A stretch of DNA of 51,190 nt from Betaproteobacteria bacterium (GCA_016189945.1 JACPRN010000106.1:1-51190); one strand, 5' to 3'; counted from the stretch's first letter, positions 29,110 to 44,280 are shown. The notes: generated by a model not told the origin, from the letters alone. Numbers and translations: made by a program.

Positions 29110-30441
29110 ATGATCGATTGGCATTGGGCGCGCTTGCTGGCGGCGGCGCTGGCGTGTTTCGCGGGCGCCGCGCAGGCGAAGCTCGAGGTGGACCAGTGGC
29201 GCGCCGAATCCGGCGCTCGCGTTCTGTTCGTCGAGGGCCGCTCGATTCCCATGGTCGACATTTCCGTGGAGTTTCCCGCCGGCAGCGCCTACGACCCCCC
29301 CGGAAAATCCGGCCTCGCGCGACTTGCCAACGACCTGCTCAAGGCGGGATCGGCGCGCACCGGCGAAGCCGAGCTCGGCCGGCGCTTTGCCGACATCGGC
29401 GCAGAGATCGGGCACAGTTTCGACCGTGACCGCGCCGGCGCGAGCCTGCGCACGCTCTCCGCGGCGCGCGAGCTGAACGCCGCCGTGGCGGCGCTCGCCG
29501 AGATGCTCTCGGCACCTGCTTTTCCGCAGAGCGCGTTTGCGCGCGAGAAGGCGAGACTGACGGCACACGTCAGGGAAGCCGAAACGCGGCCCGACCAGCT
29601 CGCCGAGCGGCGCCTGTGGGCGCTGATGTACCGCGGCCACCCCTATGGCGCCTCGCCCACCAGCGAGTCGGTGGCGGCCATCGAGCGCGCCGACGTTGCG
29701 CGTTTCCACCGCGCGCATTACTGGGCCGAGGGCGCCGTGGTCACGATCGTGGGCGACCTGTCGCGCGCGCAAGCCGCGGCGCTTGCCGCCCGGATCACCG
29801 GGCCGCTCGTTTTCTCCGCCGAAGGATCGCGCGCGGGCGGGGAGGCGTCCGGGCGTCCGGGTCCGGTGGCCCCCGCGGGCGGTGGGGTGGTGGCGCTCCC
29901 CCACCCGGCCGGCCAGAGTCACCTGCTTCTCGGCTTGCCTGCGGTGGCGCGCGACGATCCCGATTACTTCCCGCTGTTCGTCGGCAACTATGTTCTCGGC
30001 GGGGGCGGGTTCGTCTCCAGGCTCTACAGCGAGGTGCGCGAAAAGCGCGGCTACGCCTACAACGTCTACAGCTATTTTCAGCCGCTGGAGCGGCCGGGCC
30101 CCTTCCTGCTCGGGCTGCAGACCAGGAAGGACCAGACCGAGGAGGCCCTCGCCGCCGCGCGCAGCGTGCTCGAGGAGTTCATCGCGCGCGGCCCCTCGGA
30201 GGCCGAACTCAAGGCGGCGAAGAACGGCCTGGGCAGCGGTTTCCCGTTGCGCATCGATTCCAACCGCAAGATCCTCGCCCAGTTGGCGATGGTCGGATTC
30301 TACGGACTGCCCGTCACCTGGATCGAGGATTTCGTCGCCAACGTGCGCCGGGTGACGCTCCCCGAGGTGAAGTCCGCCTTTGCCCGTCGCATCGACCTCT
30401 CGCGGCTCGCGACGGTAATCATCGGTGCGCCGGAAAAGTAG
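29110..30441 (+). CDS. M16-family peptidase-like protein (no HxxEH; probable non-catalytic partner)
   Basis: Signal peptide MIDWHWARLLAAALACFAGAAQA with an M16 fold (YVLGGGGFVSRLYSEVREKRGYAY) but no zinc motif. ATG at 29110 inside ORF 29017..30441. Confidence 0.8.
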   Translation: MIDWHWARLLAAALACFAGAAQAKLEVDQWRAESGARVLFVEGRSIPMVDISVEFPAGSAYDPPGKSGLARLANDLLKAGSARTGEAELGRRFADIGAEIGHSFDRDRAGASLRTLSAARELNAAVAALAEMLSAPAFPQSAFAREKARLTAHVREAETRPDQLAERRLWALMYRGHPYGASPTSESVAAIERADVARFHRAHYWAEGAVVTIVGDLSRAQAAALAARITGPLVFSAEGSRAGGEASGRPGPVAPAGGGVVALPHPAGQSHLLLGLPAVARDDPDYFPLFVGNYVLGGGGFVSRLYSEVREKRGYAYNVYSYFQPLERPGPFLLGLQTRKDQTEEALAAARSVLEEFIARGPSEAELKAAKNGLGSGFPLRIDSNRKILAQLAMVGFYGLPVTWIEDFVANVRRVTLPEVKSAFARRIDLSRLATVIIGAPEK

Positions 30442-30972
30442 CACGCTGAGAATCATCGGCGGGACCTGGCGCAGCCGCGTAATCCGATTCGCTGCCTCCG
30501 CGGATCTGCGGGCCACGCCCGATCGCGTGCGCGAGACGCTTTTCGACTGGCTCGGCCAGGACCTCTCGGGGCGGGCCTGCCTGGACCTTTTCGCCGGATC
30601 GGGCGCACTCGGATTCGAAGCGCTGTCGCGCGGTGCCTCGCGCGTCGTGATGGTCGAGAAAGATCGCGAAACCTGCCGCGTGCTCGAGGAAAACGCCGCG
30701 CGCCTGGGCGCGCGGGGTCTGACGATCCAGTGTGCCGATGCGATAGAATTCCTCGCCCGCGCATCGGAGCGCTTTGATGTCATTTTTCTCGACCCGCCGT
30801 ATCGCAGCGGCGTGGCGATCGAGCTCTGGGCCCGGCTGCCGGGATGCCTGGCCGAGGGCGGTCTGGTCTATGTGGAGAGCGGGACGCGGTTCGCCGCCGT
30901 CCACCCCTTTGCGCTGATCCGGGCGAGCCGCGCGGGCAATGTGCACTTTCATTTGATCGGACGGAGCGAGCA

Positions 30973-30976
<4 letters not shown>
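30425..30976 (+). CDS. rsmD: 16S rRNA (guanine(966)-N2)-methyltransferase RsmD
   Basis: [31 protein letters not shown]...[20 protein letters not shown]...FLDPPY. GTG start. Confidence 0.85.
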
Positions 30977-31739
<763 letters not shown>

Positions 31740-31745
31740 TCGCGC

Positions 31746-33002
31746 TCATGCCGGCTGGACAGGTTCTCGGCCGCCGAACGCGAGCGCGTTATCGATCTCG
31801 GAGCGCAGGCGCGCCAACGCGTCCAGTTGCTCGCGCAGGGTCCTTTCGATCGGCGCCAGCTCCCCGATGCGTTCCGCGAGCGTGTCAGTTGCCTGGCGGA
31901 TGCGCTTGATCGACTCCAGGCGCCGCCGGAGCTGCAACTGCCGCTCGTGCACCTGGGTTTCCATCGGGGCCATGATCGCGCGCAGCCAGTCGTCGACCTC
32001 CCGGTTGGCGTATTCGTAGCAGCGTTTCACCTGGCTGGCGTGCGCATCGAAGAATTTCTGCGCGAGCGCCTGCTTGTCGTTGGTGAGCATGGTCATGGGC
32101 GTGTCGAATTGGCTCGCGTAGCCTGCCTCGATGCGCTCGACCTCCTTCACGTAGCGCAGCGTCGAAAACGCAACCGGGGTACTGAGCTGCAAACCATGCT
32201 CGTCGCTGAACTTTCGGTACATCACGGCCATGAGCTCCGCGATCTCTGCAACCTCCAGCGCCGCGCGCTCGAGCTTGCCGCGCACTTCGCGGAAGTAGCG
32301 CGACATGGCCGAGCGCACCCCCGGGGTGAATGCCGCGCCCAGGATATCCGCGCGCGTGCGGCGCCATTCCTCGGCCAGGGCATCGAGGCCCAGATGCGTA
32401 TACAGGCGATCGGAATGCGCGGCGAAAACGCCGCGCAGCGCCTGAAAGCGCGCCAGTCCGCGCTCGAATTCTTCCCTGTCGGCGCGGACCTTTTGCGTCA
32501 TCGTGGCGACCAGGCCGCTGTTCTTGCCGCGCAAATACTCGAGTTCACGGAGCTGCTCGAGGATGGCGCGGCGCTCGCCCTCCAGGCGCGCGCGCAGGCC
32601 CGCGACCAGATCATCGAGCTCGGCGCGGGCGATTCCGGCCAGGGCGCTCCGCCGGCCCGTGGCGAGCTCGGCTGCCGCCGAACGCTCCGGGGGCGCCCGC
32701 CCGCTGCGCTCAAGCAGCCGCGTATCGCCAAGCGCGGAAGCGCCATTCGATTTCTCGGCTGCAAGAGCGGCCGCAGGCTGTTCCTCGCTCACCTGCGCGG
32801 CGAGCCGCGCGAGCCTGAGGCTCGCCTGCGCGTCGGCCAACCCGTTCCGGTGCAGCCACTCGCGGTAGCGCTCGATGCCTGCACCGAGCACGGTCCGCCA
32901 CAGGTCGTGGGCGCGCGCGGCCTCCGCAGCGCTCGCCGCCGTCATGCCGTTTCCCGGCGCGGGGGGATCATCGGCCGCGGAACAGGGAAGAGCGCGCATC
33001 AT
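31746..33002 (-). CDS. dynamin-family-like helical (stalk) protein lacking a G domain
   Basis: 418 aa from the ATG at 33002, which overlaps the mutM stop (caATGAtg). Long helical C-terminal region resembles, from memory, the C-terminal half of ~650-aa proteobacterial dynamin-family proteins. The P-loop position reads AAEKSNGAS (no GKS) and most of the GTPase domain is absent. Confidence 0.5.
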
Positions 33003-33811
33003 TGCTGGCAGCTCGGGCAATAGAACGATGAGCGCTGTCCCAGGCGCAGGGCGCGAATCGGCGTGCCGCAGACCCGGCACGCCGCGCCGGCGCGCCCGTA
33101 GACGCAGTAGGCCTGCTGGAACCAGCCCGCGCTGCCGTCGCTGTGCACGAAATCGCGCAGCGTCGAGCCGCCTGCGGCGAGCGCCGCTTCCAGAGTCTCG
33201 CGCAGGGCGTGCGCCAGCCGCCCGCACTGCGCGCGCGACAGGCGCCCCGCGCGCGTGCGCGGAGAGATGCGGGCCCGAAACAGCGATTCATTGGCGTAGA
33301 TATTGCCCACGCCCACGACAATGGCGCCGTTCATCAAGAGCGGTTTGATCTGCGCCCGACGCTTGCGCGTGCTGCGGAACAGGTACTCGGTCGTGAATTC
33401 GGGTGACAGCGGCTCGACGCCAAGACCGGTGATCAGCGGGTGTTCGCCGGGGTCCTTCGCGGTCCACAGCACGGCCCCGAATCGGCGCGGATCGCGCAGC
33501 CTGAGGACGGCCCCGCCGATCCCGATATCGATGTGCTCGTGCGGTCCCGGGTCGAGCGCAGGCGGAACAATGCGCAGGCTGCCGGACATGCCTAGATGCA
33601 CGATCAGCCAGCCCTTGCCGCAGTCAAACAGCAGATATTTGCCGCGGCGCAGGAGACGGCGCACGCGCAGCCCCTCCAGCTTGCGCGGAAGTTCGCGCGG
33701 CACCGGCCAGCGCAGCCGCGGCTCGCGCACCACGACGCCGGTGATGGTCTTGTCTTCGACAAACGGTGCGATGCCGCGACGGGTGATCTCGACTTCGGGG
33801 AGTTCGGGCAT
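32999..33811 (-). CDS. mutM: formamidopyrimidine-DNA glycosylase (Fpg/MutM)
   Basis: [14 protein letters not shown] (catalytic N-terminal PELPEVE), KYLLF, and a C-terminal zinc finger CRVCGTPI...YCPSCQQ. ATG at 33811 inside ORF 32999..33907. Confidence 0.95.
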
Positions 33812-34033
33812 GTCAGGGTGAAGGACGAAACGGGCCGCCTCACGCGGAATGAGGTTTCCCCCAATAATTGAGCGAGTTATTGCGCTTGTCGGGCTTGGCA
33901 AATGCACCTAAACTGCGACACTCGTCGAAGCAATACGGTTGCCAAAGTGCCACGCCCAGCCAACGCCAACGCGATGCGGAAATATACAGGAGTGCGGCGC
34001 GCCCCTGTTCGTAATTTCATTTGACCTAGTCCC

Positions 34034-35845
34034 ATGGATCGCTTTTTCTCGCCGCCGCTGCAGTTCGCCTGGATGCCGATCGCGTGCGGGGTCGCGCTGA
34101 CGTGGCTTGCCGGTTGCGCGCAGCAGCCGCCAAAGCCTGAGGCGCCGGTGCAGCCCAGGGAGGCGGGGCCGGCGGCTCCGGCCCGTCCGTCTCCTCGGGC
34201 ACTGCCGCTTGGGCATCCGCCCGCGGCGCCTGCCGCCGCGTCCGAGGCGCACCTGCCCAAGCAGGATCTTACCGAGACGGTTCTGTACGAGTTTCTGCTC
34301 GCCGAGATCGCGGGGCAACGCGGCAACATCGGGCTTTCGGCGCAGGCCTACGCCGATCTCGCCAAGCGCACGCGCGATCCGCGCATCGCCCGGCGCGCAA
34401 CCGAAATCGCGGTCTATGCGCGGATGGGCAACGCCGCGATCGAATCGGCGCGCATCTGGCACGAAACCGACCCGAAATCGCAGCGTGCTCTGCAGTCGCT
34501 CGTCGGTCTGCTTATCAATGCGGGCCGTTTCGACGAGGCGCAGCCTTACCTGCAGGAGTTGCTCGCGAGCGCCGGCGACCCGGCCGAGGCTTTCATGCAG
34601 CTCAATCGCACCCTCGGGGCCGCAGCCGACAAATCGGCCGCGCTCGCGCTCGTGCAGCGGCTTGCCGAGGCCCATCCGCAACTGCCGCAGGCGCGCTACG
34701 CCGTGGCGCAAGCGGCCGCAAACGCCGCCGACGACGAGCTTGCGCTCGCCGAGATCCGGCGCGCGCAGGCGCTCAAGCCCGACTGGGAAGCGGCGGTTTT
34801 GCTCGAAGCCCAGCTCCTGCAGCGCAGGTCCAATGCGGAGGCGCTCGGGCGCCTGGCCGAGCACCTGGAGCGCCATCCGAAATCGCGCGACGTGCGCCTC
34901 AACTACGCGCGCGTGCTGGTCGCCGAGAAGCGATTTTCCGAGGCGCGCGTCGAGTTCCAGAAGCTCATCTCGGATCACCCGGCCAATACCGACGTGATCT
35001 TCGCCGTGGCGCTGCTCTCGATGCAGCTCAATGATCACGCTCTGGCCGAGGCGAACCTCAGGCGTTTGCTCGAACTCGATTACCGCGACAAGGCGAGCAT
35101 ACGCATGTATCTCGGCCAGATCGCCGAAGAGCAGAAGAGCCTGACCGAGGCGCTGCGCTGGTACGGCGAGGTGCGCGGGGGTGAGCAGTTCTTCGCCGCG
35201 CAAGTCCGTTACGCGCACGTGCTGGCGAAGCTGGGCAGGCTCGGCGATGCGCGAGGGCATCTGCAGCAGGTCCGCGCCTCGAACGAGCAGCAGCGCGCGC
35301 AGCTCGTGCTTGCTGAGGCGCAGATGCTGCGCGAGGCGAGCCAGGCCAAGGAAGCTTTTGATCTGGTGGCAAAGGCGCTCGGCGAATTGCCGGACAACCC
35401 GGAGCTCCTGTATGACTACGCCATGCTGGCCGACAAGGTCGACCGCGTGGACCTTCTTGAAACCAGCCTGAAGAAGCTGATCAAGCTCCAGCCCGACAAC
35501 GCCCACGCGTACAACGCGCTGGGCTACTCGCTCGCGGACCGGAACCTGCGCCTGGAGGAAGCGCGCGAACTGATCGAAACGGCGCTAAAGCTCGCCCCTG
35601 AAGACGCCTTCATCATCGACAGCATGGGCTGGGTGCACTACCGCTTGGGCAAGCGGGAGGAGGCGCTCAAGTTCCTGCGCCGCGCCTTTGCGGGAAGGCC
35701 CGATCCGGAGATCGCGGCGCACTTGAGTGAAGTGCTGTGGATGACCGGCGAGCGCCTGGAGGCGGAAAGGTTGCTCCAGGAATCGATACAGAAACACCCT
35801 GGAAACGAGGTCCTCAACAGCACGCTCAAGCGGCTGAAGCCATAG
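34034..35845 (+). CDS. TPR-repeat lipoprotein
   Basis: 603 aa with a lipobox (LTWLAGC) and many TPR-like repeats. Conserved position upstream of lolB. Confidence 0.7.
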   Translation: MDRFFSPPLQFAWMPIACGVALTWLAGCAQQPPKPEAPVQPREAGPAAPARPSPRALPLGHPPAAPAAASEAHLPKQDLTETVLYEFLLAEIAGQRGNIGLSAQAYADLAKRTRDPRIARRATEIAVYARMGNAAIESARIWHETDPKSQRALQSLVGLLINAGRFDEAQPYLQELLASAGDPAEAFMQLNRTLGAAADKSAALALVQRLAEAHPQLPQARYAVAQAAANAADDELALAEIRRAQALKPDWEAAVLLEAQLLQRRSNAEALGRLAEHLERHPKSRDVRLNYARVLVAEKRFSEARVEFQKLISDHPANTDVIFAVALLSMQLNDHALAEANLRRLLELDYRDKASIRMYLGQIAEEQKSLTEALRWYGEVRGGEQFFAAQVRYAHVLAKLGRLGDARGHLQQVRASNEQQRAQLVLAEAQMLREASQAKEAFDLVAKALGELPDNPELLYDYAMLADKVDRVDLLETSLKKLIKLQPDNAHAYNALGYSLADRNLRLEEARELIETALKLAPEDAFIIDSMGWVHYRLGKREEALKFLRRAFAGRPDPEIAAHLSEVLWMTGERLEAERLLQESIQKHPGNEVLNSTLKRLKP

Positions 35846-35851
35846 GGGATC

Positions 35852-36409
35852 ATGACGCCCGCGTATCGGTTAGCGCGATCCCTGGTTCTGCTCGCGGCCG
35901 TTGCGGGCTGTACCGCGCTTCCCACAGTCCGGGAGGCGGACTTCGACCGGCCGCTGTTCGAGCTTGCCGGCCGCGTCGCGGTTCAGTACGGCGCCGAAGG
36001 CGCGAGCGCTCGCCTGACGTGGCGCCATGGCGCCGCGAGCGACGACTTGCTCATCAGCTCGCCGCTCGGCCAGGGCATCGCGCGGCTCACGCGCCGCGGG
36101 GGCGAAGTGCAGCTTGTCACCAGCGACGCAACGACTCACCGCGCCGCCGACGCGGAGTCGCTGACCGAGCAGGTGCTCGGATGGCGCCTGCCGCTCGCGG
36201 GCCTGCCCGATTGGGTCCAGGGACGGCCCGATCCGGCGCGGCCGGCCGAGCTGGCGCGCGATGCGAGCGGTCGTGCGACCGAGCTCAGGCAAGACCGCTG
36301 GCGCATCGAATACCAGGAATACGAGGGCGAAAGGCCATCGAGGTTGCGCTTGACGCGCGATGACTTGGAGATCCGCTTGGTCGTAGACCAGTGGATGGTG
36401 ACGCCATGA
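35852..36409 (+). CDS. lolB: outer-membrane lipoprotein LolB
   Basis: 185 aa with a lipobox (LLAAVAGC). Size and position (TPR-lolB-ispE) fit LolB. Confidence 0.75.
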   Translation: MTPAYRLARSLVLLAAVAGCTALPTVREADFDRPLFELAGRVAVQYGAEGASARLTWRHGAASDDLLISSPLGQGIARLTRRGGEVQLVTSDATTHRAADAESLTEQVLGWRLPLAGLPDWVQGRPDPARPAELARDASGRATELRQDRWRIEYQEYEGERPSRLRLTRDDLEIRLVVDQWMVTP

Positions 36410-37266
36410 GCAGCCCCGTGAGCGGATGGGATCGCCTGTGGCCGGCGCCTGCCAAGCTCAACCTGTTCCTGCACGTCGTGGGGCGGCGCGACGACGGCTA
36501 TCACCTGCTGCAAAGCGTCTTTCGCCTCATCGACTGCTGCGACCAGCTTCGTTTCGCGCCGCTCGCGGCGCCGAGGGTGAGGCTCGCCAAGCCGCTCCCG
36601 GGCGTCGAGGAAGACAACGAGCTTTGCCTGCGGGCGGCGCACCTGCTGCAGGAGCAGACCGGATGCCGAAAGGGAGTCGCAATCCGGATCGACAAGAACA
36701 TTCCGATCGGCGGGGGGCTTGGCGGCGGCAGCTCCGATGCGGCGACCACGCTCCTGGCGCTCAACGCCCTGTGGCGCCTCGGCCTGGATCGGTTGCGGCT
36801 GACCGCGCTCGGACTGAAGCTTGGCGCCGACGTCCCCTTTTTCATTTTCGGACAGAACGCTTTTGCCGAAGGGATCGGCGAGCGGCTCTCTCCGATCGCG
36901 CTCCCCGCCGCGTGGTATCTGGTTCTGGTGCCGCCGGCAGCGGTGTCCACGCGCGAGATTTTTGCCGCACCAGAATTGACACAAAATACGAAAACTATCA
37001 CAATATCAAGCTTTTCTGCAGGGTTTGGGCACAACGATCTTGAGTCCGCGGTATGCCGGCGCCACCCCGTGGTCGCGCAGTACCTGGACTGGCTCAGGAC
37101 TCACGGCGAGGCGCGGATGAGCGGATCGGGTGCCTGTGTATTTGCCGAATTTTCCACCGAGGCGCAGGCGCGCGCGGTGGCTTCCAGGCTGCCCCCGGGC
37201 ATGCGCGGATTCGTCGCGCGTGGGCTGGACAGCCATCCCTTGAAGGGAGGCCTGGACGCAGGTTAG
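36406..37266 (+). CDS. ispE: 4-diphosphocytidyl-2-C-methyl-D-erythritol kinase
   Basis: WPAPAKLNLFLHVVGRRDDGYHLLQSVF and GHMP kinase motif IPIGGGLGGGSSDAATTL. ATG 36406 overlaps the lolB stop (ATGA). Confidence 0.95.
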   Translation: MSSPVSGWDRLWPAPAKLNLFLHVVGRRDDGYHLLQSVFRLIDCCDQLRFAPLAAPRVRLAKPLPGVEEDNELCLRAAHLLQEQTGCRKGVAIRIDKNIPIGGGLGGGSSDAATTLLALNALWRLGLDRLRLTALGLKLGADVPFFIFGQNAFAEGIGERLSPIALPAAWYLVLVPPAAVSTREIFAAPELTQNTKTITISSFSAGFGHNDLESAVCRRHPVVAQYLDWLRTHGEARMSGSGACVFAEFSTEAQARAVASRLPPGMRGFVARGLDSHPLKGGLDAG

Positions 37267-37269
37267 CGC

Positions 37270-37346
37270 TTGGGGAATCGCCAAGCTGGTTAAGGCATCG
37301 GATTTTGATTCCGACATGCGTAGGTTCGAATCCTACTTCCCCAGCC
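37270..37346 (+). tRNA. tRNA-Gln (anticodon UUG), CCA encoded
   Basis: Hand-folded cloverleaf: acceptor TGGGGAA/TTCCCCA, anticodon stem TCGGA/TCCGA with loop TTTTGAT (anticodon TTG), T arm GTAGG-TTCGAAT-CCTAC, 3' GCCA. Confidence 0.9.
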
Positions 37347-37543
37347 AGGAACCGGCCGCGACAGCGGTCATTTGACATGCTGGGGGGCGATGCCCCATGA
37401 GAATCCCCCGGGGAGCGCACCCGCGCGGGGTGACGCCGGGTTCGGCGGGGCGACCCCCCGCGAGCATCCGCGGGTGATGCGCGCCAGGGCGCGAGGGGTC
37501 GACGGTGGGCGGAGCAGCGGGGTTCTTGAGCGGGGTTGAAACG

Positions 37544-38494
37544 ATGGCCTATGAAAGCCTGATGGTGTTCACCGGCAACGCCAATCCGCTGCTTGCACAT
37601 GCGGTGGCGCGGCGGCTGAACATCCCCATCGGGCATTCGACGGTATCGAAGTTCTCCGACGGCGAAATCATGGTCGAACTATTGGAGAACGTGCGCGGGA
37701 AGGACTGCTTCGTGCTGCAGTCCACGAGTGCCCCCGCGAACGACAATTTGATGGAAGTGCTGCTCATGGTCGATGCGCTGAAGCGGGCTTCCGCTGCGCG
37801 CGTTACGGCGGCGATACCGTATTTTGGCTATGCGCGCCAGGACCGCCGGCCGCGCTCGGCGCGGGTGGCGATCTCGGCCAAGGTGGTGGCGAACATGCTG
37901 CAGGCGGTGGGCGTCGACCGGGTGCTGACGATGGACCTGCACGCCGACCAGATTCAGGGGTTTTTCGACGTTCCGGTGGACAACATTTACGCCACGCCGA
38001 TCTTGCTCGGCGATGTGTGGAAGCGCCAGTACGAGAACCTGATGGTGGTCTCGCCCGACGTGGGCGGCGTGGTGCGCGCGCGCGCCCTGGCGAAGCGCCT
38101 GGAATCGGATCTGGCCATCATCGACAAGCGCAGGCCGAAAGCGAACGTGTCCGAGGTGATGAATGTCATCGGCGAGGTGGACGGGCGCACCTGCGTGATC
38201 ATGGACGACATCGTCGACACCGCCGGGACGCTCGTAAAAGCGGCGCAGGTGCTCAAGGAGCAGGGCGCGGCGCGCGTGGCCGCCTACTGCACCCATCCGG
38301 TGCTCTCGGGAAGCGCGGTGGCCCGAATCGAGGAATCGGAGCTCGACGAGGTCGTCGTGACCGACAGCATCGCATTGGCGAAGGACGCGCAAGCGTGCAA
38401 AAAGATCCGGGTGCTGTCGGTGGCGGGATTGCTGGCCGAGACGATTCTGCGGATCAGCAACGAGGACTCGGTCAGCTCGCTTTTCATCGAATGA
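37544..38494 (+). CDS. prs: ribose-phosphate pyrophosphokinase
   Basis: [30 protein letters not shown], and PRPP loop [14 protein letters not shown] at 37544 inside ORF 37505..38494. Confidence 0.95.
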
Positions 38495-38543
38495 TTTTTT
38501 TGGCGGCGCCTGGTCGCGGGCGGCGCAGACTTGAGGAGTCATT

Positions 38544-39287
38544 ATGGCAATCGAAATCGTCGCACAGACCCGCAAGGCTCAAGGGACGGGTGCGAGCCGC
38601 CGGCTGCGTCTTGCAGGCAAGGTTCCCGGGATCGTCTACGGCGGGAGCGAATCCGCGGCCACCATCGAGCTCGAACACAATGCGCTGTATCACGCGCTGC
38701 GCGACGAGAAATTCCACGCGTCGATCCTGACGCTGAAGCTCGACGGCAGGGTCGAGCAGGTGCTGCTGCGCTCGGTCAACATGCATCCCTGGAAGTCGCA
38801 GGTGCAGCACGTCGATTTTCAGCGGGTGTCGGCGAGCGAGAAGATCCACATGAAGGTCCCGCTGCACTTCATCAACGCCGAAATCTCCCCGGCAGTGAAA
38901 GTCGCGGGCGGAATCGTCAGCCATATCATGAACGAGATCGACATCCGCTGCCTGCCCGCGGACCTGCCCGAATTCATCGAGGTCGACCTCGCGGAGATCA
39001 CCATCGGGCACTCGATCCACGTGCGCGATCTCAAGCTGCCCAAGGGCGTCGAGGTGCCGCTGAGGGCTGGTGAGAACCCCTCGGTTGCAACCGCGCAGAT
39101 CCCGCGCGCTGCGATTGCCGAGGAGGAAGAGGCGGCCGCCGCCGCCGCTGCGGCAGCGGGCGAAGCTGCTGCGGCTCCCGGTGCCGAGGCGGCACCGGCC
39201 GCAGGGGAAGTGCCCGCGGTCAAGCAGCCGGCCAAGCCCGAGGCTCCTGCAGAAGAGAAGAAGGGCGGAAGAGGCGAGAAGAAGTAA
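38544..39287 (+). CDS. rplY: 50S ribosomal protein L25 / general stress protein Ctc, with long Ala/Glu-rich tail
   Basis: [25 protein letters not shown] ... VQHVDFQRV. The C-terminal ~60 residues are low complexity ([30 protein letters not shown]). Confidence 0.9.
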
Positions 39288-39311
39288 GGCGCTTGCCACA
39301 TTCCCCTACCG

Positions 39312-39340
39312 GGGCGCGGCTGGGGTCCGCGCCCTTTTTT
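39312..39340 (+). terminator. rho-independent terminator after rplY
   Basis: GGGCGCGG-CTGGGGT-CCGCGCCC followed by TTTTTT. Confidence 0.75.
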
Positions 39341-39354
39341 CATCGATTTTCGCT

Positions 39355-39930
39355 ATGGCAATCCGGCTCATCGCGGGGCTAGGCAATCCAGGCAAGAGGT
39401 ACGAACGGGACCGGCACAATGTCGGCTTTCAGTTCGTCTCGCGCCTGGCCGAGCGCCATCGCGTCTCGCTCAGAGTAGAGGCGCGGTACCGCGGTTTGAT
39501 GGGCAGGCTCGCGATGGCCGCCGGGGACATCTGGCTGGTCATGCCACAGACCTACATGAATGCGTCGGGCGAGTGTGTGGGCGCCCTGGCGCGTTTTTAC
39601 AAGATTGCGCCCGAGCAATGCCTGGTCGTGCACGATGAACTCGATTTCGCGCCGGGCGTCGCCAAGCTCAAGGAGGGCGGCGGCGTGGCCGGACACAACG
39701 GCCTGAAGGATATCGCCGAGCACTTTGGCACGCAGCATTTTTGGCGGCTCAGGATCGGGATCGGACATCCCGGCGACAAAGATGTCGTTGCGGATTATGT
39801 TCTGTCGAAGCCTGCGCCCGAGGAGCGCGAGCTGATCGAACAGGCGCTCGCAAGGTCGCTGGACGCGTCGCCGCTCGTTCTCGCGGGCGACATGCACGCA
39901 GCAATGCTCAAGCTGCATACCAAGGCGTGA
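39355..39930 (+). CDS. pth: peptidyl-tRNA hydrolase
   Basis: [25 protein letters not shown] ... [29 protein letters not shown] at 39355 inside ORF 39070..39930. Confidence 0.95.
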
Positions 39931-39937
39931 GGGGCGC

Positions 39938-40375
39938 ATGTCGTTGAAATGCGGCATCGTCGGACTGCCCAACGTGGGCAAGTCGACGCTCTTCAACGCT
40001 CTCACCAAGGCGGGCATCGCGGCGGAGAACTATCCGTTCTGCACCATCGAGCCCAATGTGGGAATCGTCGAGGTGCCCGATTCGCGCCTGGCGGCGATCG
40101 CCGGTATCGCCAGGCCGCAGAAGGTGATCGCCGCCGCGGTCGAATTCGTCGATATCGCGGGCCTGGTGGCCGGGGCGTCCAAGGGCGAGGGACTGGGCAA
40201 CCAGTTTCTCGCCAACACCTTGGGCTACCATGGGATTTGCAGACCGCATAAACGGCCACTGGCTCAACCGTCGGATGCGGCAAACCGCATGTCCGGTGGT
40301 GTGGGAGGGCTGACGGGCGTAATCCCGTTAGCTCGACCCGATCAGGCGCGATCGCATGAACTCGCCAGTCATTGA
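39938..40375 (+). pseudogene. ychF: ychF 5' fragment (first 93 codons only), frame continues into unrelated sequence
   Basis: [26 protein letters not shown]...[24 protein letters not shown] is near-canonical YchF up to about nt 40216. After that it loses all similarity ([17 protein letters not shown]...) and stops at 40375. The ~270 C-terminal codons are missing. Confidence 0.8.
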
Positions 40376-40396
40376 ATCGTAGAAGAAAGGAACCCA

Positions 40397-41455
40397 ATGA
40401 AAGTCGCACTCGTCGGTCTTCCACAGAGCGGCAAGACATCCCTGTTCACGGCCCTGACCGGCACCGAGCCGAGCCGCGAGAAAGCGGGGATCACGATCGG
40501 CACTGTGAAGGTCCGGGACGCACGCGTCGACAAGCTGTCCGGGATGTACCACCCCAAGAAGACGACTTACGCCGTCATCGAGGTCGTCGAGGCGCACGCC
40601 CCTCACAAGGACGAGAGAAAGGCGAACAAATCGGCCCTGGACGCCGGGTTCCTGAACGTGGTCAAGCCGATGGACGCCTTCCTGCTCGTTGTGCGTGCCT
40701 TCGATGAGGAGGGCCTGAACGACCCGCGCGCGGACGTCGACACACTGCTGTCCGAAATGATCCTGGCCGACCTGATGCTGGTCGAGACGCGCCTCGAACG
40801 CGACGACCTCGAGCACAAGAAGGGCAAGCCGGGCATGTCGGGCGACGAGCGCGACGCACTCAATCGTTGCCGCAAGATCCTCGATAACAACCAACGCATC
40901 TACGAAGATGCGAACCTCGCGGCCCGTCCCGAACTGCGGACTTACGCCTTCCTGACGGCGCGTCCCATCCTGGCCATGGTCAACGTGAGCGAGGACGACA
41001 TCCCCAAGCCGACGGCCGAGGTCCTGGCGCGCTTCCGCCTGCCCGTAGCCGGCATCCCGACGTTCGCCTGTTGCGCCAAGTCCGAGGGCGAGATCCAGGC
41101 CATGCCCGAGACGGATCGGAAGGACTTCCGCGAAATGCTCGGCGTGCGCGAGCCGGTCCTCGACATCATGGTCCGGGAGGTCTACCTGGCCCTCGGGCTC
41201 GTCAGCTTCCTCACGACCGGCGAGGACGAGTGCCGCGCCTGGACCATTCGCCGCGGCACCTTGGCCCCACGCGCCGCCGGCGCGGTCCACGCCGACATCG
41301 AGAAGGGTTTCATCCGCGCCGAGGTCATCAGTTACGACGACTTCATAGCACTCGGTAGCGAGGCCGCGGCCAAGAAGGCCGGGAAGTACCGGTTGGAGGG
41401 GCGCGAGTACGTGGTGCAGGACGGGGATATCGTACACTTCCGGTTCAACGTCTGA
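40397..41455 (+). CDS. divergent YchF-family (DUF933/TGS-like C-terminus) P-loop NTPase
   Basis: 352 aa with RBS AAAGGAA, Walker A GLPQSGKTS, NxxE motif MVNVSEDD, and a C-terminus close to YchF (RAWTIRRGTLAPRAAGAVHADIEKGFIRAEVI...DGDIVHFRFNV). No DxxG at the switch II position. Confidence 0.8.
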   Translation: MKVALVGLPQSGKTSLFTALTGTEPSREKAGITIGTVKVRDARVDKLSGMYHPKKTTYAVIEVVEAHAPHKDERKANKSALDAGFLNVVKPMDAFLLVVRAFDEEGLNDPRADVDTLLSEMILADLMLVETRLERDDLEHKKGKPGMSGDERDALNRCRKILDNNQRIYEDANLAARPELRTYAFLTARPILAMVNVSEDDIPKPTAEVLARFRLPVAGIPTFACCAKSEGEIQAMPETDRKDFREMLGVREPVLDIMVREVYLALGLVSFLTTGEDECRAWTIRRGTLAPRAAGAVHADIEKGFIRAEVISYDDFIALGSEAAAKKAGKYRLEGREYVVQDGDIVHFRFNV

Positions 41456-41619
41456 GCAAAATTCAGGATTTCGCAGCGGATATGGCGCATCTCCCCGGGC
41501 TGCATGCGGCGGAAGCGCCACTGCGGCGGAATCGTCATGCCACGACTCCTTCAACGAGCAACGTCTTGTGATTCACTGGTGATTCAATCGCGGAGTATTT
41601 CACCGCTGTTGCTTCCGTG

Positions 41620-42108
41620 TCAGGCTTTCACGCTGCTCAAGCGCAGCATGAGCGTCATCGGATGCGTCGGCGAGGACTGAAACCCGTAGTGCTCGTAGAA
41701 CTGCTTGGCCTTCGCGTGAAGGGCGTGCACAAGAAGGGCTCTGACGCCAGCGTTCTGCGATACGGCCACCGCGCGATTGACGGCGTCCTGGAGCAAGGCA
41801 GCACCCAAATGCAGTCCCTGCGCCTTGCGATCGACCGCGAGCCGGGCGAGAACCATGACAGGAACCGGATCAGGCATGTTGCGTCGCACGCCGCTCGTTG
41901 CGAGTTGGTGCGAAACGGCGCCGGCTGCCATGGCGTAGTAGCCGCAGACGCGACTGTCCTGATCGGTGACGACAAACGTGCGGCTCGCCCCGCTTGACTG
42001 GTTGGCCAATGCCCTGCGCTTGAGCCAGTCGTCGAGCACAGCCTCGCCGCACTCGAAGTCATCCAGTCGATGTGAAGCCGCCAAGGGCTCCGGCGGACCG
42101 AGTTGCAA
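41620..42108 (-). CDS. GNAT-family acetyltransferase toxin (TacT/KacT-like)
   Basis: 162 aa, apparent TTG start 2 nt after the antitoxin stop. Contains LDDFECGEAVLDDWLKRRA, VMVLARLAVDRKAQGLHLGAALL and QFYEHYGF. Confidence 0.8.
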   Translation of the reverse strand: MQLGPPEPLAASHRLDDFECGEAVLDDWLKRRALANQSSGASRTFVVTDQDSRVCGYYAMAAGAVSHQLATSGVRRNMPDPVPVMVLARLAVDRKAQGLHLGAALLQDAVNRAVAVSQNAGVRALLVHALHAKAKQFYEHYGFQSSPTHPMTLMLRLSSVKA

Positions 42109-42110
42109 GC

Positions 42111-42389
42111 TCAGGCCTTCGCGGACTTCCTGCCCCAGGGTGCCTTGACCGCCATGAGGCGCTCAAGCCCCGGATTGCGCGTGGGCGGCGCGTCGAGCAG
42201 CTTGGTGAACTGCCGGAACTTCTCGGCATCCAATTTGAAAAATACCTGATCGAGCAGCACCGACTGGGCCTTGTCGCAGGCGGCTTCGAGCATGAAATCG
42301 GAGCGGTTCTTGCCGAGCAGCTGCGCAGCCTGGTCGATCAGTTCCCGCTGCTCGGGACGTGCCCGCAGGTTGATGGCGGCGTCGCGCAT
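42111..42389 (-). CDS. DUF1778 (RHH) antitoxin, TacA-like
   Basis: 92 aa from ATG 42389 (RBS GGGAGA): MRDAAINLRARPEQRELIDQAAQLLGKNRSDFMLEAACDKA...LDAPPTRNPGLERLM. Confidence 0.8.
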   Translation of the reverse strand: MRDAAINLRARPEQRELIDQAAQLLGKNRSDFMLEAACDKAQSVLLDQVFFKLDAEKFRQFTKLLDAPPTRNPGLERLMAVKAPWGRKSAKA

Positions 42390-42411
42390 GAGTTTCTCCC
42401 GGTTCGTACAT

Positions 42412-42455
42412 ACAACAGATATACGAATCTTACGATTCTGTATAGCAGTTGTCAA
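42412..42455 (-). promoter_or_regulatory. promoter and palindromic operator of the toxin-antitoxin operon
   Basis: Minus strand reads TTGACA (42455-42450), 17 nt, TAAGAT (42432-42427). It is overlapped by the imperfect inverted repeat ACAACAGATATACGAATC (42412-42429) / GATTCTGTATAGCAGTTGT (42434-42452). Confidence 0.6.
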
Positions 42456-42528
42456 CACACGGCCGGTCGCGCTGTCGCGAGACAATAGCCTTGCCTTGCT
42501 GCAGCGCGATTGCCCGGCAATGCACAGA

Positions 42529-42666
42529 GAGGGTTGCAAAATACGCTTTCGGCAGGAGCCTGCGGACCGCGCGCGCGGTTTCCCCGGTGTCCACCAGGTC
42601 GTCGATGAGCAGGAACCCTTCGCCGTCGCCGCTCACGCCTTCGAGCACTTGCAGCGCGAATTGTCG
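42529..42666 (-). pseudogene. gpt: internal fragment of xanthine-guanine phosphoribosyltransferase (gpt)
   Basis: Frame reads ...[46 protein letters not shown], matching the PRPP-binding core of Gpt (E. coli ...[42 protein letters not shown]). The N-terminal ~80 and C-terminal ~30 codons are absent. Confidence 0.7.
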
Positions 42667-42758
42667 TGGCCGCGCCGGGGGGCGGAGCGCGCTCCACTGC
42701 CCCAGCCCCGGCTAGAATAGGGGAAGGCAGGCGCCTGTTTTTCGGGGAGGCGAATCGC

Positions 42759-43799
42759 ATGCGAATCGAAGAAGACCTCAAGCTCGATTTCAAGGACGTT
42801 CTCATTCGGCCCAAGCGCTCGACCCTCACGTCGCGCTCCGAGGTGGACATCTCGCGGCAATACGCGTTTCGGAATTCCGCGGGCAAATACCGGGGCATTC
42901 CCATCATCGCCGCCAACATGGACACGGTGGGCACGTTCGAAATGGCCCGGGCCCTGTGCGCGCACGGGCTATCGGCAGCCCTGCACAAGCACTACGATGA
43001 ACCCGCGCTGGCGGGATTCTTCCGCGGGCTGGCCGCCGAGGCGACGGTGTTCTACTCGATGGGAATCACCGGCGCGGACTACGACAAGTTCCGCCGCGTC
43101 AGGGACGAGGTCGGCGAGGCGATTGCCTACGTCTGTATCGACGTTGCCAACGGGTACACGAAGTCTTTCGTCGATTTCATCGAGAAATTCCGCACGACCT
43201 ACCCCAAGGTCACGATCATGGCCGGCAACGTGGTCACCGGTGAAATGACCGAGGAACTCATCCTTCTGGGCGTGGACATCGTCAAGGTCGGCATCGGCCC
43301 GGGTTCGGTATGCACGACGCGCAAGATGGCAGGGGTCGGCTACCCGCAATTATCGGCCATCATCGAATGCGGCGACGCGGCGCACGGCCTGGGAGGTCTT
43401 ATCTGTTCCGACGGCGGCTGCACCGCCCCGGGGGACCTCGCCAAGGCTTTCGGCGGCGGCGCCGACTTCGTCATGCTGGGGGGAATGTTTGCCGGACATG
43501 AGGAATGCGCCGGCGACGTCGAGGAACATGGCGGGATGCGCAAGGTGAGATTTTACGGCATGAGTTCGCGCACCGCCATGGACAAGTACGCCGGCGGGGT
43601 GGGGCGCTACCGCGCCTCCGAGGGCAGGGAGGTGCTGCTCGACTATCGCGGGCCGGTTGAGGGAACGGTGCAGGAAATTCTCGGCGGGGTGCGTTCCGCC
43701 TGCACCTACGTCGGGGCCAGGCGCCTCAAGGAATTGTCCAAGAGGACGACCTTCATTCGCGTGGCCCGCCAGATGAACGAGGTGTTCGGCGCGGCCTAG
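42759..43799 (+). CDS. guaC: GMP reductase
   Basis: [23 protein letters not shown]...[12 protein letters not shown]...[14 protein letters not shown]...[12 protein letters not shown] is near-collinear with E. coli GuaC. ATG at 42759 inside ORF 42666..43799. Confidence 0.95.
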
Positions 43800-43836
43800 G
43801 CCGGTTCGCGGGCCGAGCGTTCGGCCGGCGCGCGTT

Positions 43837-44280
43837 TCAGCGCACCACCAGCACCGGTATGTCGGTGTGCATCATCACCTTGTGCGTTTCGCTCTGGATC
43901 ACGAAACGCGGTATGCCGTGGCGAATGCGCGACGCCATCACGATCAGGTCGCAGCGCTGCTCCTTCGCGACCCGAACGATGGATTCGTAGGGCGAGTAGC
44001 CGGTGATGAATGCGACCTCGGCGTCCACCCCGGCGGAGGCAGCGATCGCCACCGCCGCGTCGAGCAACTGGCGCTCTTCGACGGCGATTTCTTCCATCAC
44101 CTTGCCTTCGCCCAGGCGCGACAGGGCGCCGCCCTCGACGTGGTGCGGAATGTCAATCGGTGACCTGACATGCAGCAGCAGCATTCTGGCCCCCGCGAAC
44201 TTGGCCAACCGGGCCGCTTGCATGACGGCCTTCCCGGACAGTTCGGAGCCGTCGGTGGGTGCGAGGATATGCCGATACAT
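43837..44280 (-). CDS. universal stress protein (UspA family)
   Basis: MYRHILAPTDGSELSGKAV...LLLHV...DLIVMASR...VMMHTDIPVLVVR. ATG at 44280 inside ORF 43837..44322. Confidence 0.85.
   Translation of the reverse strand: MYRHILAPTDGSELSGKAVMQAARLAKFAGARMLLLHVRSPIDIPHHVEGGALSRLGEGKVMEEIAVEERQLLDAAVAIAASAGVDAEVAFITGYSPYESIVRVAKEQRCDLIVMASRIRHGIPRFVIQSETHKVMMHTDIPVLVVR

Follow-up and report, generated by a model that had tools for sequence, protein, structure and literature searches.

In the 51,190-nucleotide (nt) stretch of DNA from a Betaproteobacteria bacterium analysed here (GCA_016189945.1, JACPRN010000106.1:1-51190; hereafter the window, with coordinates counted from its first letter), the gene ychF, which follows pth, is cut after 93 codons and a complete but very divergent gene of the same family, here called ychF2, stands downstream of the cut. 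This locus most likely carries the scar of an in-place (xenologous) displacement of the resident ychF by ychF2, overlaid with unrelated insertions and deletions. The interval concerned, 40218-42528, runs from the breakpoint in ychF to a second one in a fragment of gpt and also contains a toxin-antitoxin pair. An earlier note on this DNA had read the whole interval as a single ~2.3 kb cassette that replaced the 3' ends of ychF and gpt.

Results

The resident ychF stump

Species-representative genomes were scanned with the Pth protein of the window, and the nearest relative was L007 (loci of relatives carry L numbers throughout), a groundwater Betaproteobacteria metagenome-assembled genome (MAG) whose Pth shows 86% amino-acid (aa) identity. 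Alignment by blastn showed that positions 29907-40217 are collinear with L007 at 78-85% nt identity and that this homology stops at 40217, the first base of ychF codon 94. The cut at codon 93 described earlier is borne out by this breakpoint and by the identical junction in L008/L058, L056 and L074. L007 has a full ychF and a full gpt, and the copies in the window are remnants.

The open reading frame (ORF) at 39938-40375 encodes 145 aa, of which just residues 1-93 are YchF; its last 52 codons cross non-coding sequence. Pfam MMR_HSR1 was matched by residues 5-93 (1.2e-18), and residues 1-93 align to profile positions 1-94 of TIGR00092. With codons 1-93 alone, the stump falls short of the ~364-codon coding sequence of a canonical ychF. 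Those 93 residues are 94% identical to the full-length YchF of L007 and unchanged at every position that is invariant among seven canonical YchF sequences. Compared with L007, the nonsynonymous (dN) and synonymous (dS) divergences of the stump are 0.03 and 0.49, and the dS of ispE, prs, rplY and pth is 0.67-0.84. Because its divergence from L007 resembles that of the flanking genes, the invariant residues are intact and the spacing to pth is native, the stump appears to be the resident gene, recently cut, and would be a young pseudogene. It may yet yield the 145-aa product, from which no function would be expected. A tblastn search of the 51-kb window found no other piece of canonical ychF and no other piece of gpt, and the ~270 missing ychF codons are, as had been stated, not present downstream.

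A divergent YchF in the place of ychF

The description of ychF2 as a complete, very divergent member of the family was upheld by domain and profile searches. Its product carries the C-terminal YchF domain PF06071 (4.7e-38, residues 268-351), aligns with Haemophilus influenzae YchF (1JAL) over residues 2-352 (4.5e-57) and is 37% identical to the YchF of L007. Against TIGR00092 it scored 237.3 bits, below the equivalog cut-off of 279.2, and the canonical YchF of L007 scored 505.6. The G1 (GLPQSGKT) and G4 (NVSE) motifs are kept, and the canonical G3 motif DIAG (DxxG) aligns to EAHA at residues ~66-69, a replacement also seen in both close relatives examined for it, L056 and L057. YchF2 may as a consequence hydrolyse nucleotide differently.

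The gene is under purifying selection (median dN/dS ~0.2). We infer that ychF2 is a functional replacement of the truncated ychF and supplies YchF function. No terminator-like site was found between pth and ychF2, and for this reason ychF2 is probably co-transcribed with the prs-rplY-pth block by read-through from pth across the stump.

Transfer of ychF2 between lineages

A protein search returned more than 40 YchF2 relatives (85-94% aa identity), most of them in uncultured Betaproteobacteria. In relatives with 11 distinct pth-to-ychF2 spacers, the gene stands directly after pth within the conserved lolB-ispE-tRNA-Gln-prs-rplY-pth block; canonical ychF follows pth in L007, L010-L012, L014 and L016. 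The earlier note had counted the divergent gene as part of the cassette; its recurrence at the same position in many relatives points to a replacement gene, not a random passenger.

Between the window and most lineages, dS was 0.04-0.22 for ychF2 (0.55 for L003) and 0.65-1.6 for ispE, prs, rplY and pth. Across 55 pairs of 11 lineages the median dS was 0.24 for ychF2 versus 0.96 for pth, and ychF2 dS was below 0.3 in 32 of the 45 pairs having a pth dS above 0.6. The flank tree also conflicts with the ychF2 tree: ychF2 of the window groups with that of L063, whose flanks are the most distant (aa distance to the window 0.29 for the flanks and 0.068 for ychF2). L091 is 92.7% identical to L007 across rplY-pth, yet has ychF2 where L007 has canonical ychF; this ychF2 starts 64 nt past the pth stop codon and is 98% identical to that of the window over its first 253 nt. 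Since its dS is far below that of the flanks and its tree conflicts with theirs, ychF2 is a recently transferred xenolog that displaced ychF in place. The locus combines the marks of xenologous displacement in situ, namely the same operon position, a distant homologue and a conflict between gene tree and flank tree.

A slow ychF2 clock behind the low dS was ruled out. In close hosts the protein distances of ychF2 and of the flanks are about equal (0.088 versus 0.083 for L058-L070), a ratio near 1, and in distant hosts ychF2 reaches a plateau at no more than 0.11 with flanks at up to 0.29. The non-coding leader upstream of ychF2, which includes an intron relic described below, is also ~90% conserved between lineages. 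Taken on these sequence comparisons, the intron-relic/ychF2 unit has recently entered several deeply diverged uncultured Betaproteobacteria lineages, very often directly after pth.

Away from pth, the context of ychF2 includes TctC and PPK2 genes in L051, and in L053 it has a subtilase gene upstream and a degraded integrase and helix-turn-helix (HTH) gene downstream. These are ordinary chromosomal contexts, and a mobile-element setting for ychF2 outside pth was rejected. A YchF2 relative of 66% identity (P0056) does not adjoin pth. The long contigs L005 and L006 contain many split gene calls (TctC, gamma-glutamyltranspeptidase), and ychF2 is called there as fragments of 206 aa and 261 aa; its DNA aligns full length, and the splits look like frameshift errors of uncorrected long-read assemblies.

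A probable group II intron relic upstream of ychF2

The 180 bp between the ychF cut and ychF2, earlier called unexplained, are best accounted for by the 3' relic of a group II intron followed by the 5' untranslated region (UTR) of ychF2. Rfam RF00029 matched 40266-40342 over the full model (positions 1-77) with 32.1 bits, below the gathering threshold of 40 (E = 1.5e-3 in a 5-kb search), and the homologous leaders of L051 and L067 reached 35 bits, likewise below gathering. A search of plasmids with the leader matched 361 records. The best annotated match, in Paraburkholderia largidicola NZ_AP023177, directly follows ltrA, which encodes a reverse transcriptase/maturase, and that intron has Rfam matches to D1-D4 and D5-D6 above threshold. 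The relic is 87% identical to its domains V-VI over 52 nt, and both terminate in ACCCGAT. Unlike the plasmid intron, the relic of the window keeps ~125 nt of the 3' end (up to ~180 nt in L051 and L070), is without D1-D4 and maturase, scores under the RF00029 gathering threshold and has a D5 apex one pair shorter with a CAAA loop. Rfam matches to D1-D4 were absent from the window and from the four leader-bearing loci scanned (L008, L051, L067 and L070), and tblastn with LtrA gave nothing significant that could be a maturase remnant. Relic copies are ~90% identical, which is too similar for informative covariation.

On these matches, 40218-40342 is best described as the 3' tail of a group II intron, a relic and not an intron. 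A ychF split by a complete intron was rejected, as just ~125 nt of an intron 3' end are present and what follows the predicted 3' splice site is not ychF codon 94 but the ychF2 UTR. Some ~55 nt more are retained to the left of the relic breakpoint of the window in L051, L001, L070 and L006, and the codon-93 junction would therefore sit inside a formerly longer relic. The extra sequence in L051, L001 and L070 was considered as a decayed second stump or a maturase C-terminus, and tblastn with LtrA found nothing significant in it. The UTR travels with the gene: in L091 it begins 10 nt after the pth stop codon. In L001 (7990-9134), an 88-nt deletion within the relic puts upstream sequence in frame with ychF2, and the publicly annotated 'YchF' is 377 aa long, 25 spurious residues having been added at its N-terminus.

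A deletion series in the spacers of relatives

The spacer from pth to ychF2 measures 466 nt in the window and 12-288 nt in the 11 distinct spacers of relatives. The junction of ychF codon 93 with ACCTTGGGC is the one that recurs in L008/L058, L056 and L074, where the last 36 nt of the stump are joined to the relic at the identical nucleotide in a 241-nt spacer. L070 (288 nt) has a longer relic and no stump. Shorter spacers are found in L088 and L059 (166 nt), L064 (111 nt), L060 and L065 (84 nt) and others (64, 61, 36 and 12 nt). In L088, L059 and L060 the start of ychF (ATGTC...) is fused to the tail of the relic through the short repeats ATCGTCG and CCCGAT, and the joint in L064 runs through the 8-nt repeat GCTGACGG, which is common to the native spacer and domain VI. 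These spacers read as successive microhomology deletions of a structure like that of the window, which is the most complete intermediate. Because the same junction recurs in other assemblies, a misassembly specific to the window is excluded.

Ends of the shared unit

In most contexts fetched, the right end of the sequence shared between ychF2 loci lies 0-2 nt past the stop codon; it lies 21 nt past it in the window, L053 and L056, and ~55 nt in L070. Divergence does not rise toward the 3' end of ychF2. A right crossover within the coding region was rejected, since mismatches are even to the last bin, and it could lie at most a few tens of nt inside. Canonical ychF loci have a different right flank in every lineage, and the diversity of right flanks would largely reflect host divergence at a synteny boundary. 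In L011 and L012, canonical ychF ends in sequence that agrees at 20 of 21 positions with the final 21 nt of ychF2, CACTTCCGGTTCAACGTCTGA.

A P4-like tyrosine integrase gene (NF007246, 8.6e-62) lies within 180 nt downstream of ychF2 in L056 (7239-8528). In L053 (5075-5503), where the upstream context is not pth, a degraded and internally deleted copy follows ychF2. The two loci share ~145 nt of flank between ychF2 and the integrase, of which the window has the first 21 nt, and no tRNA gene lies between ychF2 and integrase in either. The ychF 3' end might serve as an integrase attachment site. At ychF/ychF2 loci other than L056 and L053 no integrase was found next to the gene.

The window itself contains no integrase, transposase or terminal repeats, in agreement with the earlier reading, and a search of it for an att-like second copy was equally empty. 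The features of an integrase-borne island, an integrase and flanking direct repeats, are thus lacking in the window. Those of an integron cassette are lacking too: the shared sequence ends 0-21 nt past the stop in most contexts (~55 nt in L070), no conserved 3' element (attC) follows ychF2, and no other Rfam match was found in 39000-44000.

The ancestral locus and what the window has lost

Every feature that the earlier note had listed was recovered at its position by ORF listing and domain scans (Table 1). In L007, the counterpart of 40217 is followed by the rest of the 364-codon ychF, xdhA, xdhB, a 172-aa Gpt on the minus strand, a three-gene ABC transporter on the minus strand and guaC. The xanthine-dehydrogenase-type genes comprise a Fer2/FAD_binding_5 gene and then a MoCoBD gene; together with gpt and the NMT1-type ABC transporter they form a purine-salvage cluster between ychF and guaC (L007 11730-19113), of which the window keeps just 45 gpt codons. 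Window 42528-42653 matches L007 16031-16156 at 81% nt identity (blastn), and homology to L007 restarts at 42726, which corresponds to L007 19596. The ychF-gpt gap of ~4.2 kb in L007 is occupied by xdhA-xdhB, so these genes do not adjoin as the convergent 3' ends that had been assumed. Another 3.4 kb of L007, the 5' part of gpt and the three-gene ABC transporter, has no counterpart between the gpt fragment and guaC. Set against L007, the window has no ychF codons 94-364, no xdhAB, no ABC transporter and neither end of gpt.

The ancestor was L007-like, with the order pth, ychF, xdhA, xdhB, gpt (minus strand), ABC transporter (minus strand), guaC, and the DNA between the ychF and gpt breakpoints is not ancestral. 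From this locus the organism has probably shed xdhAB, gpt and the ABC transporter, and xanthine/guanine salvage through the locus would have gone with them. The GC content of 40217-42528 is 62.8%, against a mean of 65.7% (standard deviation 1.9) over 2.3-kb windows; the impression of a lower GC was correct in direction, although the drop is marginal and ychF2 itself is host-like (GC 65.0%, GC at third codon positions 0.875). The compositional signal of the interval is weak.

The gpt remnant lacks its N-terminal part (residues 1-79), as had been reported, and tblastn with the L007 Gpt showed that residues 125-172 are missing too. The fragment scored 23.2 bits against PF00156, below the cut-off of 26.3, and a complete phosphoribosyltransferase fold is not present.

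A separate tacAT module

The GNAT/DUF1778 pair with a near-consensus promoter was substantiated by Pfam matches and by a promoter scan, which found TTGACA-17-TAAGAT at 42455-42427. The gene order is that of TacAT systems: tacA comes first, ending at 42111, and tacT begins at 42108 after a gap of 2 nt. The predicted pair would be autonomous. Copies in unrelated metagenome contigs (L096-L105) adjoin an IS91-family Y2 transposase or a Gp49/HigB-HTH pair, and thousands of TacT proteins at 88-94% identity, mostly on short contigs, suggest a very mobile module. No tacAT was found beside ychF2 in any of ~45 ychF2 loci. The pair is a separate, independently mobile unit and would have arrived independently of ychF2.

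The pair shares with known TacA-TacT (DUF1778/GNAT) type II systems the antitoxin-toxin order with its 2-nt gap, the PF08681 and GNAT families and the promoter-like site. It differs in that the window copy belongs to a very widespread group of 88-94% identity found beside IS91-type transposases and HigBA-like pairs. Pth has been reported to detoxify aminoacyl-tRNA acetylated by TacT; tacT lies 1.7 kb from pth here, and this proximity is probably coincidental.

Between ychF2 and tacT, the minus strand at 41538-41477 has a Shine-Dalgarno sequence (GAAGGAG) and an ATG followed by the open frame MTIPPQWRFRRMQPGEMRHIR, which after 20 codons continues antisense into ychF2. This has the look of the start of a gene whose remainder was removed when ychF2 arrived, and suggests that the right end of the ychF2 unit truncated something already downstream of tacT. 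The stretches 41477-41618, 42472-42528 and 42664-42725 had no match in any fetched locus. As a whole, the interval is a patchwork that takes no fewer than two or three events to explain: the arrival of ychF2, the arrival of tacAT and one or more deletions.

Table 1. Features of the window from pth to guaC.
Feature	Position	Strand	Description
pth	39355..39930	+	last gene of the lolB-ispE-tRNA-Gln-prs-rplY-pth block, still collinear with relatives; 86% aa identity to L007
ychF stump	39938..40217	+	codons 1-93 and first base of codon 94; 94% aa identity to L007 YchF
group II intron 3' relic (putative)	40218..40342	+	domains V-VI at 40266-40342; domains I-IV and maturase absent
ychF2 5' UTR and ribosome-binding site	40343..40396	+	54 nt; conserved upstream of ychF2 in many loci
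ychF2	40397..41455	+	complete divergent YchF-family gene, 352 aa; PF06071 4.7e-38
21 nt carried along with ychF2	41456..41476		shared with L053 and L056, more loosely with L070
filler with gene start	41477..41618	-	ribosome-binding site and ATG (41538), 20 codons, cut off at 41477; no match in fetched loci
tacA-tacT module	41619..42471	-	own promoter-like site; ~93% nt identity to L096-L105 over exactly this span
tacT (GNAT toxin)	41620-42108	-	GNAT families, 1e-9 to 3e-7
tacA (DUF1778/TacA antitoxin)	42111-42389	-	PF08681 4e-26
filler	42472..42528		57 nt; no match in fetched loci
gpt fragment	42529..42663	-	residues 80-124 of the 172-aa L007 Gpt, 80% aa identity (tblastn); cut at both ends
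filler	42664..42725		stands in for 3.4 kb of L007; no match elsewhere
guaC	42759..43799	+	PF00478 1.1e-71; 88% nt identity to L007; collinearity with relatives restored

Discussion

Other histories of this locus have to be weighed against the displacement of ychF by ychF2. One composite foreign cassette, made up of the 180 bp, ychF2 and tacAT, could have been inserted in one step, replacing the ychF and gpt ends, as the earlier note proposed. All of 40218-42528 is indeed absent from L007 and bounded by two truncated genes, and no internal repeats separate the modules. The modules nevertheless occur apart. The ychF2 unit (40218-41476) is found at dozens of loci, none with an adjoining tacAT, and homology to them ends at 41453-41476, whereas 93%-identical tacAT copies end at 41619 and 42471 in unrelated contexts. 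With a truncated gene start lying between the two, and with L007 showing ychF and gpt ~4.2 kb apart and a second gap past gpt, a single event is quite unlikely. A chimera assembled from a canonical-ychF contig and a ychF2 contig is much less probable still. The genome is probably metagenome-derived, the exact ychF2 and guaC products are not on record, and ychF2 is far closer to other lineages than are the flanks. However, the junction between codon 93 and the relic is also present in L008/L058, L056 and L074 (the last differing in sequence), it contains no shared sequence that an assembler could collapse, remnants of the same structure are found in L088, L059, L060 and L064, and the right side returns to an L007-like gpt and guaC. 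Least probable of all is that ychF2 is ancestral and the 93-codon fragment with the relic a foreign insertion between pth and ychF2. The many relatives with ychF2 directly after pth would fit this order of events; the stump, however, is as diverged from L007 as the flanks and collinear with pth at native spacing, the flanks have diverged 4-10 times more than ychF2, whose tree conflicts with theirs, and L007 and five further relatives have canonical ychF after pth.

A dedicated mechanism that moves ychF2, either an integrase island using the ychF 3' end as its att site or the upstream group II intron, is improbable, if less so than these. It would explain why the shared unit ends 0-2 nt past the stop in most contexts with no rise of divergence in the gene, and why the left junction is identical in lineages whose flank dS is ~1; the integrase in L056, degraded in L053, shares a 21-nt flank with the window, and the intron relic is always 5' of ychF2 where upstream sequence is preserved. 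Against an integrase stand its absence beside all other ychF/ychF2 loci and the lack of a second att-like copy in the window, and since the right flank of canonical ychF is also unique to each lineage, flank diversity is largely host divergence. The intron is without domains I-IV and maturase in all loci checked. Excised intron RNA would not carry 3' exon sequence, given the established chemistry of splicing. Variation of the 5' boundary at pth is explained by microhomology deletions with remnants of the stump.

In the displacement of ychF by ychF2, a horizontally circulating unit made up of the 5'-truncated group II intron tail, the 54-nt UTR, ychF2 and 21 nt of donor flank replaced the resident ychF from codon 94 onward. 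In the swap proposed here its left homology arm would be a 5' piece of canonical ychF carried by the unit, and its right arm either the terminal 21 nt of near-identity to canonical ychF or an illegitimate joint; homologous or homology-facilitated illegitimate recombination would then swap ychF for ychF2. In the window the right joint would be illegitimate, as it lies 21 nt past the stop and cuts into a gene at 41477. Two or more deletions would have removed xdhAB, both gpt ends and the ABC transporter.

Several points weigh against this account. The recombination mechanism is itself an extrapolation from the sequence of the joints. The right arm would offer near identity over just ~21 nt, identity across the last 225 nt is ~68%, and the stump near the junction is closer to L007 than to the 36-nt remnant of L008, with no donor-derived tract visible. 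In addition, ychF2 occurs in at least six non-pth contexts, and homology arms derived from ychF cannot explain those insertions. The search for second copies covered 51 kb, and an intact canonical ychF or gpt may exist elsewhere in the genome.

The concept of xenologous gene displacement in situ reportedly goes back to Omelchenko et al. in Genome Biol in 2003. The term is used, for example, in PMC1274311. As in such displacements, a conserved operon gene has here been replaced by a distant, horizontally acquired homologue (37% identical) with its neighbours kept. Unlike the usual cases, which are inferred from phylogeny alone, the 5' third of the displaced gene survives, relatives present a graded deletion series, and the event is both recent and repeated in several lineages. 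A related process, the displacement of type VI secretion system (T6SS) effector genes in Vibrio cholerae, is said to leave remnants of earlier occupants. According to PMC5361080, these genes undergo sequential displacement by homology-facilitated illegitimate recombination, an incoming allele replacing the resident at a fixed locus. The likeness to ychF2 lies in this replacement at a fixed locus; ychF2 differs in being a housekeeping ATPase gene for which a homology anchor and a microhomology joint would have to be assumed. Islands carrying P4-like integrases at the 3' ends of conserved genes resemble the locus in the integrase within ~180 nt of ychF2 in L056/L053, of whose flank the window shares 21 nt. 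The window differs from them in having neither integrase nor direct repeat, and the break in canonical ychF falls within the 5' third instead of at the 3' end. The literature searched contained no paper linking YchF to xenologous displacement. The process is of a known kind, in-place gene displacement, freshly caught and unusually well documented.

For annotation, the 145-aa ORF and the 72-aa gpt-like ORF should be read as pseudogene remnants, and the 'YchF' of these MAGs is not the canonical protein, its G3 DxxG being replaced. The intact 93-codon stump, the intron relic and the graded deletion series together provide a stepwise record of displacement and clean-up that is usually invisible.

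YchF belongs to the small set of near-universal P-loop proteins, and its inheritance is usually taken to be vertical. Here a resident gene appears to have been ousted at its own locus by a variant of this near-universal ATPase, a 37%-identical YchF that would have crossed recently between lineages up to 29% divergent in their flanking proteins. More speculatively, and with considerable doubt, ychF2 could act as a self-targeting replacement cassette, or have its ends set by an integrase- or intron-derived mechanism. As a self-targeting cassette it would carry along the 5' piece of its victim's ychF, with its last 21 nt mimicking the victim's 3' end, and any related genome taking up the unit would swap canonical ychF at its native locus. 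If either were true, ychF2, an allele of a translation-associated ATPase found almost universally, would be selfish or under strong selection and, without the canonical G3 motif, would be sweeping across deeply diverged lineages.

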